The notes under the pieces are model-generated. The model was not told the DNA's origin and searched no databases. It worked only from the letters and a program-made list of their open reading frames with translations. Positions 33,495-54,994 of a stretch of DNA of 64,000 nt are shown piece by piece (within the stretch, counting starts at the first letter, position 1; every line of letters begins with the position of its first letter). This stretch comes from Escherichia phage KKE7M. The DNA lies in the sequence record PQ356295.1, one strand, 5' to 3'. The position numbers and the translations under genes are program-made.

Positions 33495-34217
33495 ATGATC
33501 GAGAATTTTTTCAAACAAGTAAAAGTGGACAATAGCTTCTTTATCAAAGCTGCCGATCAAATTGTTGCTTGGAATGCTAAGGCACGTGGTGGAGTAACTC
33601 CAGAGTTTACTCAAGAGATGTTTGAAGCTCAACTTTCTTTTGTACGAGAAGAACTTAAAGAGTTCCAAGCAGCAGCACAGGAAAATGATCACGTTGAATT
33701 ACTTGATGCAGCAGCAGATATTTTTGTGGTAGCATCCTACCTGGCGTTTATGTTCTTTGGTAAAGAAGGTGTTGATAAAGCTCTGGAAATGCCGACAGGA
33801 GATGTTCTGGCAGAAAACATCTACGATGTTATCATTGAATTTGATAAAATGGTAGAAAATGACTTGCAATTTGCCCTAATGTCTCTTACACTTACACGTA
33901 TGGCACGAGATACTTTGGTACGTTCTGTTTATAACGAGAAGAAGGTTATGCGTGAAGTGTTGAATAGCAATGAGTCCAAGTATCCTACCAAGAAGCAACT
34001 CCTGGCTATTTGGGAAACTAAGGATATTATTGAAGCTCTTGAAAAAGAATGTGATGCTATCGAGATGCGAAGCAAAGATCGTGCAGAAGGTTCTTATACT
34101 GGGGTACACGCTGTATATAACGAAGTTCAAAAGGTGTATGTATTCTTTGATGACAAAGGTAAAATTATGAAACCATCTACCTTTGTTAAACCTAATATCG
34201 CAGCAATCATTGCTTAA
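33495..34217 (+). CDS. MazG-like nucleotide pyrophosphohydrolase (candidate)
   Basis: N-terminal EExxEF...ELLDAAADI all-alpha NTP-PPase pattern. Confidence 0.4.
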   Translation: MIENFFKQVKVDNSFFIKAADQIVAWNAKARGGVTPEFTQEMFEAQLSFVREELKEFQAAAQENDHVELLDAAADIFVVASYLAFMFFGKEGVDKALEMPTGDVLAENIYDVIIEFDKMVENDLQFALMSLTLTRMARDTLVRSVYNEKKVMREVLNSNESKYPTKKQLLAIWETKDIIEALEKECDAIEMRSKDRAEGSYTGVHAVYNEVQKVYVFFDDKGKIMKPSTFVKPNIAAIIA

Positions 34218-34221
34218 GAAA

Positions 34222-34241
34222 TAAAGCCCCTTCGGGGGCTT
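34222..34241 (+). terminator. hairpin AAGCCCC-TTCG-GGGGCTT
   Basis: 7 bp GC stem with UUCG loop after the 33495..34217 gene. Confidence 0.45.
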
Positions 34242-34253
34242 ATTGGAGGTATT

Positions 34254-34532
34254 ATGTTAACAGCAGAAGATATCTTTAAACACGGTTTGCGTCAGGTGAT
34301 CAAATCCTTGAAGAATGCAGGTATTGAAGATATCACACAGGAAATTGTTGGTTTAGAAAAAGAAGGTAAGAGAACAGAATTTAAGTTTTACACAGAAGAA
34401 CAGTGGTTGAGTAACCCGCAAAACAAAGCTAATGAGGCTGTTAGTCTGTTTGGTAAATCTTATAAAGGATTTAAATATCCTGATCATATTGTCGAATATG
34501 ATGGTGTAAAATATTTTGTAGTTGTTATTTGA
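34254..34532 (+). CDS. hypothetical protein
   Basis: 92 aa ORF. Confidence 0.45.
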   Translation: MLTAEDIFKHGLRQVIKSLKNAGIEDITQEIVGLEKEGKRTEFKFYTEEQWLSNPQNKANEAVSLFGKSYKGFKYPDHIVEYDGVKYFVVVI

Positions 34533-34542
34533 GGAGAAAACT

Positions 34543-35427
34543 ATGTTTGCTAAAAATTTCAAATCTTGCGTAACCCTGATTTCTGGTGATGGCCTGTCTA
34601 TTTCAGCACTGAACACAGTAACAGACAAACCGCTGGATTTTGTTGTGGCACAGGGGCAACAAGCACATACCATTGGTCTTGTTCGTTTTGAAGATGATGG
34701 TTCCTATGTAAAAGTGTTCTCTGGTTTAGAGGTTATTAAAGTAGGGCAATCTGTTAAGAAAGTTAACAAGAAGAAAGTTAAACGCATTCTTAATGAAAAA
34801 CTCCAGGAGATGGAACAAGAGTTTATTGCTGCAAATCCTACTAAAGAATTCTTCTTGGATAAAGAAAGTAAAAAAGCAATTGAGGCTGATATCGTGTTTT
34901 CTCTGCTTCCAGAAACAGAGGCAGATGATTTCTACAACTATGTTGTTGTAGACACTGAAAACAGTATTACCTATGTTCTTAATGGTTCTAAGAAAATTAG
35001 TGAAGATATTGCTGTATTTCTTCGTGAGGTGTTGGGTACTTTCCCAGTTCTGCCGTTTAGTGTACACGAAGAAGCCATTATTAAAGGTTTTGATACCATC
35101 TTAGAAGAACATGAGGCTGAACGACTGACCCTGGGTAATTATATTAAACTTGAAGATTCTGAAGGTGTGGTTGTATGGAGTAAAGAGTCCCTTTATGAAT
35201 CTCGTGCAGTAGAACTTATGGAAGATGGTAAGCACGTTGTTGCCATTGGCCTGGAATATGACGGTTTCGTTAACTTTATTGTCGATAAAGAATTTAAGTT
35301 GAGTGGTATTAAATTCCCTAAATACTTTAACGATGAAGAAGGATCTTTTGAAGCATCTGTCCTTCTGTGCTTTAATGAAATCCGTGGTATTATGCAAGAC
35401 CTTATCAAGTCAACTATTCAAAAATAA
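34543..35427 (+). CDS. hypothetical protein, weak RdgC-like resemblance
   Basis: ORF 34522..35427 in track; likely ATG 34543 with AGGAGAAAACT RBS; about 295 aa acidic. Confidence 0.3.
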   Translation: MFAKNFKSCVTLISGDGLSISALNTVTDKPLDFVVAQGQQAHTIGLVRFEDDGSYVKVFSGLEVIKVGQSVKKVNKKKVKRILNEKLQEMEQEFIAANPTKEFFLDKESKKAIEADIVFSLLPETEADDFYNYVVVDTENSITYVLNGSKKISEDIAVFLREVLGTFPVLPFSVHEEAIIKGFDTILEEHEAERLTLGNYIKLEDSEGVVVWSKESLYESRAVELMEDGKHVVAIGLEYDGFVNFIVDKEFKLSGIKFPKYFNDEEGSFEASVLLCFNEIRGIMQDLIKSTIQK

Positions 35428-50888: not shown

Positions 50889-50910
50889 CAAAGGGGCGAA
50901 AGCCCCTTTT
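50889..50910 (+). terminator. rho-independent terminator
   Basis: AAAGGGGC-GAAA-GCCCCTTTT. Confidence 0.65.
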
Positions 50911-50925: not shown

Positions 50926-51678
50926 ATGGGAAATAAAACCGCAAAGGCTCGTCGTCAATCAGCAGCCAATGATGACAAACGTGCCAGTCGTTATGCGGCT
51001 AAAGCAGTAGGAAATGATGATTACCGTCTTGATGAATTTACCCCTATTGGGAATCAAGAAGCTATTGTAAGAAGCATGGTTTGGAATGACTTAACCATTG
51101 TTAATGCCCCAGCAGGAACAGGAAAAACAACAACAGCACTATGGAAAGCATTGCAAATGCTTAAAGCTGGTGACTTCAGAAAGTTGATTTTCCTTAAAAA
51201 CCCGACAGAAGTAGGTGATGATCAAATTGGTTTCTTATCTGGAGATAAGACTGATAAACTAGCAGCACACTATGAATCAACTAAAAGAATTTTCCAACAG
51301 TTTATGACTGCAAATAAATTGGAAAACGATATTGCAAGTGGCAAAATTGAACTTAATATTCCAAACTATGCACTAGGTGCTACGTGGGATAACAGCATTA
51401 TTCTTATTGATGAAGTTCAACTTATGTCACCAAATACAGTAAAACTTCTCCTTGAGCGAGCAGGTCTTAATACACGTATTGTCATTATGGGCGATGTTAA
51501 TCAAACATATGCAATTAAACGAAGAGCTAATGGGTTAGGTGATTTGTTAGATCGTGTTGTTCCTATTAACGAAGAAGGAGAAAGGGAAGCTATTGTAGAT
51601 TTTATTGGTTATGTTGAAATGACAACTGCTGATAACCAACGTTCCCGTTTGTCTCAGTTCATCACGGAAGTATATTAA
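50926..51678 (+). CDS. phoH: PhoH-like ATPase
   Basis: NAPAGTGKTT Walker A and overall PhoH length and pattern. Confidence 0.75.
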   Translation: MGNKTAKARRQSAANDDKRASRYAAKAVGNDDYRLDEFTPIGNQEAIVRSMVWNDLTIVNAPAGTGKTTTALWKALQMLKAGDFRKLIFLKNPTEVGDDQIGFLSGDKTDKLAAHYESTKRIFQQFMTANKLENDIASGKIELNIPNYALGATWDNSIILIDEVQLMSPNTVKLLLERAGLNTRIVIMGDVNQTYAIKRRANGLGDLLDRVVPINEEGEREAIVDFIGYVEMTTADNQRSRLSQFITEVY

Positions 51679-51714
51679 TAATTACAAGGCAAGGATGCCT
51701 ATTATGGAGGTTAA

Positions 51715-52206
51715 ATGACGCTAATTGAGATTGATCGCAATGGTATTGATGAATGCTATCAAGCTGGCTTAGTTAAGCCGAATGAGTTTAGACAGATTTA
51801 TATTGACAAGATTGAAAAAGAAATATCTCTTCGTTTAGAGAACATGACAACTTTGCAAAAAGTTCAGATGTTTTTTAGTTGGTTGAAAGGGGAGGATTGG
51901 CTAACTAAATATTACCAGGAATTATCTGATAGTCAAGAAGGCTTGTTTGAGTGTATAATAAATGTAGCTGGGTCTAATTCAGAATTACTCCTGATCGATG
52001 AAGAAGATTGTAAACTTCTTTTTCTTAGCAGCATCTTTCACAAGAAATCTATGTTAGTAAGAAATTGCAGTGATTTACTAAATCATCCACTAACAAGAAC
52101 TAATAAAATTCTTGTGGATAAAGAAACACTAAGAGCTATTGATTACCTCCGTAAATATGTAAGCGGTGGTAAAGCAGTCCTTAAAACACTACAGGAGGAA
52201 GTATAA
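51715..52206 (+). CDS. hypothetical protein
   Basis: 163 aa ORF. Confidence 0.45.
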   Translation: MTLIEIDRNGIDECYQAGLVKPNEFRQIYIDKIEKEISLRLENMTTLQKVQMFFSWLKGEDWLTKYYQELSDSQEGLFECIINVAGSNSELLLIDEEDCKLLFLSSIFHKKSMLVRNCSDLLNHPLTRTNKILVDKETLRAIDYLRKYVSGGKAVLKTLQEEV

Positions 52207-52859
52207 TGACAACAATTATTGCAACACGTAACAAAATTCTGTCTGACGGTAAGGTAACAGTAGGTAGTCGTGTAGACACTTTAAATTTCAAGAAAGTGCG
52301 TAAAATTGGGGACTACCTTGTTGGTGGTGCAGGACGTCTGTCTTCTATCCTGACTTTCTTTTCTTGGTTTGAACAAAACTTACAATGCCAGGCAGCACAA
52401 GAGACAATCCCAGGTTTGGTGATCCAGTCAGATCCCGATAAAGAAGATGAAGAGTTTGTGGCATTGGTTGTTCACCCAGACGGTAAAATTTATATGCACG
52501 AGGGTAATAATCCAACTCGAGCATATCCTTTAACTGAAGATTATTATGCAGTTGGTAGTGGGGCAGATTTTGCTTTAGCAGCTTTAGATGCTGGGGCAAC
52601 CCCGGAAGAAGCGATGGAAGTTGCAAAACTACGAGATGCTTTTTCAGGTGGTGAAACTTTTGTCGAAGAGATCGAAGAACAACTGGAGTTAACAGCGGAA
52701 GATATTCTGAACTTCAGCAAGGAGCAACTAATTAGTATGCTGTTGACTGGTGATCCTGATAGTGATGAAGCTGAAAGTATTTTAGCAGAAATGAAAGAAT
52801 CACAAGAAAAAGTATTGACAGTCTCTGAAAAACTTGATAAAGTATCCTCTGATAATTAA
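52206..52859 (+). CDS. HslV-like Ntn-hydrolase peptidase (proteasome beta-type), candidate
   Basis: N-terminal MTTIIA (Thr nucleophile after Met), KKVRK and AVGSGADFALAALDAG parallel HslV blocks. Confidence 0.45.
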   Translation: MTTIIATRNKILSDGKVTVGSRVDTLNFKKVRKIGDYLVGGAGRLSSILTFFSWFEQNLQCQAAQETIPGLVIQSDPDKEDEEFVALVVHPDGKIYMHEGNNPTRAYPLTEDYYAVGSGADFALAALDAGATPEEAMEVAKLRDAFSGGETFVEEIEEQLELTAEDILNFSKEQLISMLLTGDPDSDEAESILAEMKESQEKVLTVSEKLDKVSSDN

Positions 52860-52867
52860 TCTATCAT

Positions 52868-52886
52868 AAACCCCCTCAAGGGGGTT
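52868..52886 (+). terminator. hairpin AACCCCC-TCAA-GGGGGTT
   Basis: 7 bp GC stem after the 52206..52859 gene. Confidence 0.45.
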
Positions 52887-54331: not shown

Positions 54332-54994
54332 ATGAAGTTTGTACTGTATCATCGACTTTCTAAGAAGAAACAACAAGGCAACCAGTATGGTATAGAATCA
54401 CAGGAAGCAGATATCCAACGCTTCCTGGATTCACAAGAAAATTATACTATTGTAGGTAGCTTTGCAGAGTTTTATTCTGGTAAAGGCGATTGGAAGCAAC
54501 GTAGAGAGCTTGTAAAAGCTGTTAATCTTTGCAAAGAAACAGGTGCTACACTTGTTGTTGCTAAGGTTGACCGTCTTGGACGTAACACAGCTTCTGTTGC
54601 AACCTTGTTAGAGATGATTAATGTACGAATAGCAACGATGCCCTCCGCTGAAAATATGATAATAAATATTTTAGCAGTTCTGGCAGAAGAAGAGGCTCGT
54701 GCAATATCGGATCGTGTTAAGAAGAGCCTTAAGGTAGCAAAAGCGAAGGGAACGCTTCTTGGTGCAGCAAACCCTAAATACAAAAGAACAGATTATACGA
54801 AAACGGAAGAAGCAAAACGCTCAAAAGAGTTTGCGCTTTCTTTAAAAGATTCTTTAGTTGCATACAGGGCTTGTAAAACGCCATATATGACGATTGCAAA
54901 GCATCTGAATGAATCAGGAAAGAGAACTATTCGTGGGAGTTTGTTCGATGCCAAAGCGGTACAACGTCTTTGTGCAAAATTGAATATTAAATAA
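54332..54994 (+). CDS. small serine recombinase (resolvase/invertase family)
   Basis: LYHRLSKKKQQ catalytic Ser region, VVAKVDRLGRN, LAEEEARAISDRVKKSLKVAKAKG, C-terminal HTH-like tail. Confidence 0.65.
   Translation: MKFVLYHRLSKKKQQGNQYGIESQEADIQRFLDSQENYTIVGSFAEFYSGKGDWKQRRELVKAVNLCKETGATLVVAKVDRLGRNTASVATLLEMINVRIATMPSAENMIINILAVLAEEEARAISDRVKKSLKVAKAKGTLLGAANPKYKRTDYTKTEEAKRSKEFALSLKDSLVAYRACKTPYMTIAKHLNESGKRTIRGSLFDAKAVQRLCAKLNIK

Follow-up and report, generated by a model that had tools for sequence, protein, structure and literature searches.

The subject of this analysis is a gene for a proteasome-like peptidase in a 64,000-nucleotide stretch of DNA of Escherichia phage KKE7M (PQ356295.1), which was analysed as a whole and is referred to below as the window. 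The gene occupies positions 52206..52859 of the plus strand and encodes an intact protein of 217 amino acids starting with MTTIIATRNK, a peptidase of the HslV/PPH type with an N-terminal threonine (Pfam PF00227, PHROG 1040). It is the orthologue of phi92 gp058, to which it is 98.6% identical, and it is 100% identical to the protein of phage 92CQ. A Shine-Dalgarno sequence AGGAGGA (52193..52199, +) is located 6 nt before the ATG, within the 3′ end of the upstream open reading frame (ORF), and an AGGAG ribosome-binding site is annotated at the equivalent position in the phi92 record. This upstream ORF (51715..52206, +) encodes a gp059-like protein of 163 amino acids, and shares one nucleotide of its TAA stop with the peptidase ATG, which makes co-translation of the two proteins probable. 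Further upstream lies a gene for a PhoH-like P-loop NTPase (50926..51678, +; Pfam PF02562 at 1.4e-35). The 6 kb around the peptidase gene show 98-99% identity with phi92-type E. coli myoviruses (Justusliebigvirus, Stephanstirmvirinae), and the window aligns with approximately 11.2-74.9 kb of phi92 in the reverse orientation.

The peptidase as such is already known: its gene bears a name in dozens of GenBank records, and proteins 99-100% identical to it go by "putative 20S proteasome", "putative proteasome component", "HslV family peptidase" or "peptidase HslV family". A homologue is encoded in 166 phage records (106 of them Escherichia phages), where the hosts of the family are Escherichia, Klebsiella, Vibrio, Aeromonas and Shewanella. 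Two records, 'Campylobacter phage A110a' and 'B15' (MG065689.1 and MG065650.1; host Campylobacter jejuni), bear proteins identical or near-identical to those encoded by E. coli phages of the phi92-like and rV5-like kinds; a wrong host label, or contamination of the records, is the probable reason.

Both sequence and structure comparisons placed the product among the proteasome-type N-terminal nucleophile (Ntn) hydrolases. The Pfam family Proteasome PF00227 (MEROPS T1) was matched with 25.1 bits (E = 1.6e-5), which exceeds the gathering cut-off of 22.4, and PHROG 1040 "peptidase HslV family" was matched over residues 1-212 with 210 bits (E = 8e-62). Among the sequences of solved structures, HslV chains gave the best matches (5e-8 to 1e-5, 26-36 bits), followed weakly by beta5 subunits, and BLASTP with E. 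coli HslV showed 29% identity across 157 columns. An AlphaFold2 model of the monomer, for which a 52-sequence family alignment served as input, had a mean predicted local distance difference test score (pLDDT) of 84.6, mostly above 90 in the core, and displayed the alpha-beta-beta-alpha Ntn fold of the proteasome beta type. A Foldseek search with this model retrieved 813 PDB chains at E <= 1e-3, the 50 best listed all being proteasome-type. The Ntn-hydrolase core comprises residues 1-158 (52206..52679, +) and contains strands S1-S11 and helices H1 (residues 45-67), H3 (120-128) and H4 (133-143), with the last core strand at residues 152-155. The profile search and structure prediction suggested as checks in the initial annotation of this locus thus agree on a proteasome-type Ntn hydrolase, as sequence profiles, the model and the Foldseek matches all point to that fold and none to an unrelated one.

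The active site is intact. Thr2 (codon at 52209..52211, +), the counterpart of HslV Thr1 and the predicted nucleophile after the loss of Met1, is invariant in the family, as are Asp14 (52245..52247, +; Asp17 of HslV and the proteasome), Lys30 (52293..52295, +; Lys33 of HslV and the proteasome) and Gly117-Ser118-Gly119 (52554..52562, +; HslV Gly123-Ser124-Gly125). These positions were also inspected in the 150 best cluster representatives from an exhaustive search of 1.84 billion proteins: the nucleophile is Thr or Ser in 141 of the 150, the Asp is kept in 146, the Lys in 149, and the Gly-Ser-Gly motif has its first Gly in all 150, Ser or Thr in 145 and the second Gly in 148, while 118 of the 150 start with M-T-T. 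Gly40 (HslV Gly45) and Gly43 likewise do not vary in the family, as judged from alignments with E. coli HslV added, and among the 150 representatives Thr2, Asp14, Lys30 and these two glycines each occur in 141-149. The initial annotation had drawn attention to a threonine exposed after Met1 in the MTTIIA start, and to two blocks shared with HslV, KKVRK and AVGSGADFALAALDAG. Both observations hold true, as Thr2 does not vary in the family and the blocks correspond to residues 29-33 and 115-130, in which Lys30 and the Gly-Ser-Gly motif align to HslV. Methionine aminopeptidase can remove Met1 when the second residue is Thr; as this exposes the threonine nucleophile, no propeptide is needed. Judging from the sequence and the modelled fold, the ORF product, a member of the proteasome-beta/HslV superfamily, appears to be competent in catalysis as an N-terminal-threonine peptidase.

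The ratio of nonsynonymous to synonymous substitution rates (dN/dS) of the gene ranges from 0.05 to 0.23. For the core it was 0.055 in comparison with phi92 and 0.13 in comparison with the rV5-like Shigella phage SF1-1, whereas the C-terminal 59 codons, with a dN/dS of about 0.57, are under far weaker constraint. The invariant active site and the low dN/dS of the core indicate that the gene is real and under selection for a function that uses the catalytic residues. With the PHROG 1040 match, the 166 phage records and these dN/dS values, the resemblance greatly exceeds what chance would give.

The description of the protein as an HslV-like threonine peptidase, given in the initial annotation, is borne out by the fold and the active site, but it does not extend to orthology with HslV. 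The protein scored far below the cut-offs of the NCBIfam HslV equivalogs (34 bits vs. 137 for NF003964, and 31.6 vs. 157.75 for TIGR03692) and is not an HslV orthologue. Compared with HslV, it has four residues fewer in the first hairpin, and the segment aligned with the HslV helix H2 (residues 68-83, TIPGLVIQSDPDKEDE; 52407..52454, +) is acidic and non-helical in the model, where DSSP assigns no helix at a pLDDT of 75-83. Among the HslV residues involved in responding to or contacting HslU, R86 has no fixed counterpart in the phage family, L88 corresponds to an invariant Asp and R89 to Glu; R35 is invariant in the phage family. In HslV, the C-terminus of HslU is accommodated by Phe54, Phe57, Gln114, Ala79 and Lys80 (PMC6429459). 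Only F57 of this pocket is kept in the phage peptidase, as an invariant Phe; F54 is replaced by Leu, and A79, K80 and Q114 are unconserved. The spacing between the GxAG and GSG motifs is 75 here vs. 76 in HslV, and short relatives are about 15 residues shorter in this region (median 60).

Another difference is a 59-residue C-terminal extension (residues 159-217; 52680..52856, +), which is lacking in HslV. According to the alignment and the model, it comprises a conserved helix (approximately residues 164-181, TAEDILNFSKEQLISMLL) and then a variable acidic tail; conservation is found around the motif "sKEQLL", and the remaining tail bears a net charge of -10. Helices are modelled at residues 164-168, 172-181 and 188-212, the pLDDT drops below 50 past residue 204, and the last 14 residues are predicted to be disordered. 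Other C-terminal domains are present in relatives, whose total length reaches 379 amino acids.

Among the known groups of proteasome homologues, the peptidase best fits the phage-borne PPH/RPC group rather than true HslV, a placement made on the published description of that group. In the survey of proteasome homologues by Fuchs, Alva and Lupas (2021; PMC8665760), the PPH/RPC groups are without helix H2, no AAA+ interactor co-occurs with them, and the missing S12/H5 is a group-I feature. Phage proteasome homologues that have no AAA+ partner were thereby already recognised as a class in 2021 (PMC8665760). What our protein shares with PPH/RPC is its nature as a phage-borne group-I Ntn protein with Thr right after Met1, no propeptide and a conserved catalytic triad; the S1-S11 core with H1, H3 and H4 kept and no H2 in the model, where the H2 segment is unshortened and has a pLDDT of 75-83; and the lack of a known AAA+ partner. 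A C-terminal extension is common to RPC and the phage peptidase. PPH proteins come from Caudovirales phages or prophages, with which the occurrence of our protein in 166 phage records agrees. They are about 140 amino acids long, vs. 217 amino acids with the 59-residue extension here, and the H2 segment of our protein keeps the HslV length instead of being deleted as in the short forms. RPC is reported from Proteobacteria only, whereas this extended form is apparently confined to phages. The phage peptidase is closer to RPC in architecture and to PPH in host range; its relatives range from 130 to 379 amino acids.

The nearest relatives outside its own clade, found in a library of about 1.8 billion proteins, are phage-type proteins of 130-160 amino acids that start with M-T-T, with 35-41% identity and 55-73 bits (HslV chains, 26-36 bits). 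A tblastn search with a 138-amino-acid relative yielded no closer isolate phages, only members of the same peptidase family with an identity of about 33%. BFVD, a library of viral structures, holds 51 clusters with the same fold, the closest being Caulobacter-phage proteins of 131-146 amino acids with a target-normalised TM-score of 0.83-0.89. Other phage-encoded HslV/Ntn proteins occur in the Caulobacter phages CcrColossus and CcrBL9 and in Erwinia, Salmonella and Pseudomonas jumbo phages; some Erwinia/Salmonella jumbo phages encode an HslU-like ATPase, whereas the phi92/rV5 lineage does not. The genome paper on Salmonella phage pSal-SNUABM-04 reports HslV but no HslU (PMC7823757). The beta-proteobacterial proteasome homologue (BPH) and Anbu are cellular proteins that keep H1 and H2, are less similar in sequence to the phage peptidase than HslV is, and are devoid of its C-terminal helix and acidic tail; our protein is phage-borne with no H2 modelled. 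Unlike the beta subunits of the 20S proteasome, the phage peptidase is without a propeptide, an alpha-subunit partner and S12/H5, and it is much smaller.

Among about 185,000 species genomes scanned with a pattern, a 425-bp contig was the only match, and for this reason the extended form of the peptidase appears to be confined to phages, within the limits of the pattern scan. The contig in question, JAPMLR010000072.1 from a Lysobacteraceae assembly, shows 74% identity to residues 68-188 and is most likely phage contamination rather than a chromosomal gene.

The absence of an HslU partner from the window, also claimed in the initial annotation, was confirmed in two ways. No HslU/Clp-type AAA+ protein was present among the 18 ORFs of the window with at least 300 amino acids, and tblastn with E. 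coli HslU, searched to E <= 10, detected HslU neither in the window nor anywhere in the phi92 genome (best E = 3 over 15 amino acids). In the seven relatives examined (36-76% identity), no AAA+ gene adjoins the peptidase gene. Phage HslU-like genes are encountered mainly in Erwinia/Salmonella jumbo phages; Escherichia records with such a gene number 4, vs. 106 with the peptidase. The PhoH-like protein encoded upstream was considered as the missing ATPase and rejected, being a P-loop protein of the PhoH/SF1 type and not an AAA+ unfoldase.

An indication that the gene is accessory comes from phage VEcB. Its RefSeq record NC_052663.1 lacks the interval corresponding to 51270..52391 of the window, a 1,122-bp deletion between 8-bp GCAGCACA repeats. 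As a result, a single coding sequence stands in for three genes: PhoH residues 1-113 are joined in frame to the peptidase from approximately residue 63, and the gp059-like gene is lost. The 267-amino-acid chimera has a PhoH domain and yet covers 71% of the peptidase query at 99% identity, while the catalytic N-terminus with the Thr nucleophile, Asp14 and Lys30 is removed. The peptidase gene is intact in a second VEcB record, OZ035773.1, which is longer by 1,183 bp. The sequence of NC_052663.1 suggests a probable natural knockout; provided that the deletion is real, the phage can be propagated in the laboratory without PhoH, gp059 and the catalytic half of the peptidase, which would make the peptidase gene an accessory one.

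Three findings, namely that the phage has no HslU, that the HslU-responsive surface (H2) is remodelled, and that a C-terminal helix with an acidic tail has been added, lead us to favour the view of an accessory peptidase functioning without an AAA+ unfoldase. We consider it rather likely that the protein is an active threonine peptidase with no dedicated AAA+ unfoldase, that its targets are peptides or proteins in an unfolded or loosely folded state, and that the extension serves assembly or partner binding. As to the mechanism, we infer the activity, oligomeric state, ATPase independence and substrates of the peptidase as follows. The protein would be made with the early or middle metabolic genes, translationally coupled to the helical gp059-like protein. 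The host methionine aminopeptidase would take off Met1, leaving Thr free as the nucleophile, and Asp14, Lys30 and Gly-Ser118-Gly would complete the active site. Probably acting as an oligomer, the peptidase would cleave such peptides and proteins in the course of infection with no dedicated AAA+ unfoldase, and the C-terminal extension may serve assembly, or partner or substrate binding. A proteasome-type peptidase of a phage that has no unfoldase raises a recognised question, namely what it is for and whether ATPase-free action is possible. The phi92-like lineage lends itself to such studies: it infects E. coli, its members are available from culture collections (such as BASEL and phi92), and the active site is intact; one of the VEcB stocks may already hold a natural deletion variant.

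Several points weigh against this view. The loss of H2 is deduced from a model segment of moderate confidence that keeps the HslV length, part of the HslU-tail pocket, the one on helix H1, is retained (F57 as Phe, F54 as Leu), and the assignment to PPH/RPC was made by description. HslV alone is a poor peptidase, and therefore an activator may still be needed by the phage peptidase as well. Outside the window, phi92 encodes two paralogous proteins of 375-386 amino acids with an AAA domain, gp190 and gp221 (PHROG 2376; 17149-18309, minus strand, and 33606-34733, plus strand, in the phi92 stretch L004), which match Pfam AAA PF00004 at 27 and 39 bits. Only one record shows the VEcB deletion, which could have arisen in assembly or be a mutation confined to that stock. 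In the literature we found neither biochemical nor genetic data on this protein or PPH-type homologues, nor functional data in papers on phi92 and the proteasome, on the follow-up of PPH or on the transcriptomics of these phages, and the gene goes unmentioned in the main text of the rV5 genome paper.

The most serious alternative is that the peptidase borrows the host HslU, docking on E. coli HslU hexamers in place of HslV or mixed with it; the resulting ATP-dependent protease would cleave or handle its substrates differently. Gamma-proteobacteria normally carry hslVU. All known hosts of the family belong to this class, E. coli K-12 has hslVU, HslV is the closest solved relative of the phage peptidase, and two H1 residues of the HslU-tail pocket are kept or conservatively replaced in the phage protein, with R35 invariant. 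However, the H2 side of the pocket (A79, K80) and Q114 are unconserved, and the changes at R86, L88 and R89 run counter to the docking. The H2 segment is non-helical in the model and is deleted entirely in the short relatives. The low identity to E. coli HslV and the four-residue deletion in the first hairpin point in the same direction, as does the lack of an AAA+ association reported for PPH/RPC (PMC8665760). Taking both sides into account, we regard the use of host HslU as unlikely.

A bolder variant of unfoldase-free action assigns a role to the co-translated gp059-like protein. It belongs to PHROG 14834, which has no known function, and gave no family match in Pfam, PDB sequences, NCBIfam or PADLOC; its AlphaFold2 model is of high quality (pLDDT 94.2, predicted TM-score 0.85) and mostly alpha-helical. 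Its gene adjoins the peptidase gene in enterobacterial-type relatives, even where identity falls to about 30% (profile E of 1e-31 to 1e-42), and the protein is undetectable in the Vibrio and Aeromonas phage relatives. It is a possible partner of the peptidase. The two might even form a two-component protease peculiar to phages, in which a small non-ATPase partner, or the C-terminal helix and tail, replaces the unfoldase as a gate, adaptor or activator, and which targets particular host proteins (e.g., those of the stress response or anti-phage defence) under non-laboratory conditions. We hold this to be a long shot; if true, it would be a proteasome-type protease with regulation not yet described in bacteria or viruses. 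Improbable as well is a more specialised role of the peptidase as a site-specific processing enzyme, or as a transpeptidase or ligase like the proteasome homologue connectase, acting on one phage or host protein, possibly the gp059-like one.

Cooperation with gp190 or gp221, which would make up a phage-encoded proteasome-like machine, has in its favour the PF00004 matches, a weak similarity of these ATPases to the D2 domain of p97/Cdc48 (1e-4) and their presence in all 106 Escherichia phage records with the peptidase. On the other hand, the ATPase family is found in 379 phage records with Gram-negative and Gram-positive hosts, including many phages of Enterococcus, Bacillus, Staphylococcus and Lactococcus, none of which is among the 166 peptidase records. 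Because the ATPase is common in phages of Gram-positive hosts that have no peptidase, there is no specific co-occurrence of the two. Moreover, the ATPase genes lie about 95-110 kb away from the peptidase gene, and their secondary PHROG matches are clamp loaders and DnaC-like loaders, so that this partnership seems distinctly improbable to us. The idea of a non-catalytic decoy that poisons host HslV rings or titrates HslU and so stops host HslVU proteolysis agrees with the homology to HslV in a phage without its own HslU, but it is highly improbable, as a decoy does not need the active site whose Thr, Asp, Lys and Gly-Ser-Gly are invariant in a core of low dN/dS, and the interface residues have diverged.

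In all seven relatives, the gene order is NrdA/NrdB, glutaredoxin, lysozyme, PhoH-like, one to three small ORFs and the peptidase. The PhoH-like gene is located one to three genes upstream of the peptidase gene in all relatives examined, including Vibrio phages with a peptidase of about 36% identity; the match is weak (26% identity) for the upstream PhoH-like protein of Aeromonas phage 4L372D. This constant proximity may reflect a functional link or mere inherited gene order. A role as a prohead or virion maturation protease was rejected, as the gene resides in a non-structural block of nucleotide metabolism (NrdAB, glutaredoxin, lysozyme, PhoH), a long way from the genes for portal, scaffold and capsid (approximately 11.6-16.4 kb), and a component of anti-phage defence was rejected as well, there being no PADLOC match.

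Downstream of the peptidase gene, 12 nt past its stop codon, there is a GC-rich palindromic hairpin CCCCCTCAAGGGGG (52871..52883), which fails the T-run criterion for a terminator on the plus strand and may be a weak terminator or an RNA-stability element. Short GC-rich palindromic hairpins recur in successive gaps between the genes, at 50890-50909 after lysozyme, at 51687-51700 after PhoH-like and at 52871-52883 after the peptidase. All three were flagged as terminator-like on the minus strand only, and they may represent weak terminators or elements of RNA stability or processing. A few genes further downstream, a serine recombinase of the resolvase/DNA invertase family is encoded at 54332-54994 (+), and the distant metagenomic relatives likewise have one a few genes beyond the peptidase gene; such an enzyme is unusual for a module of a strictly lytic myovirus.

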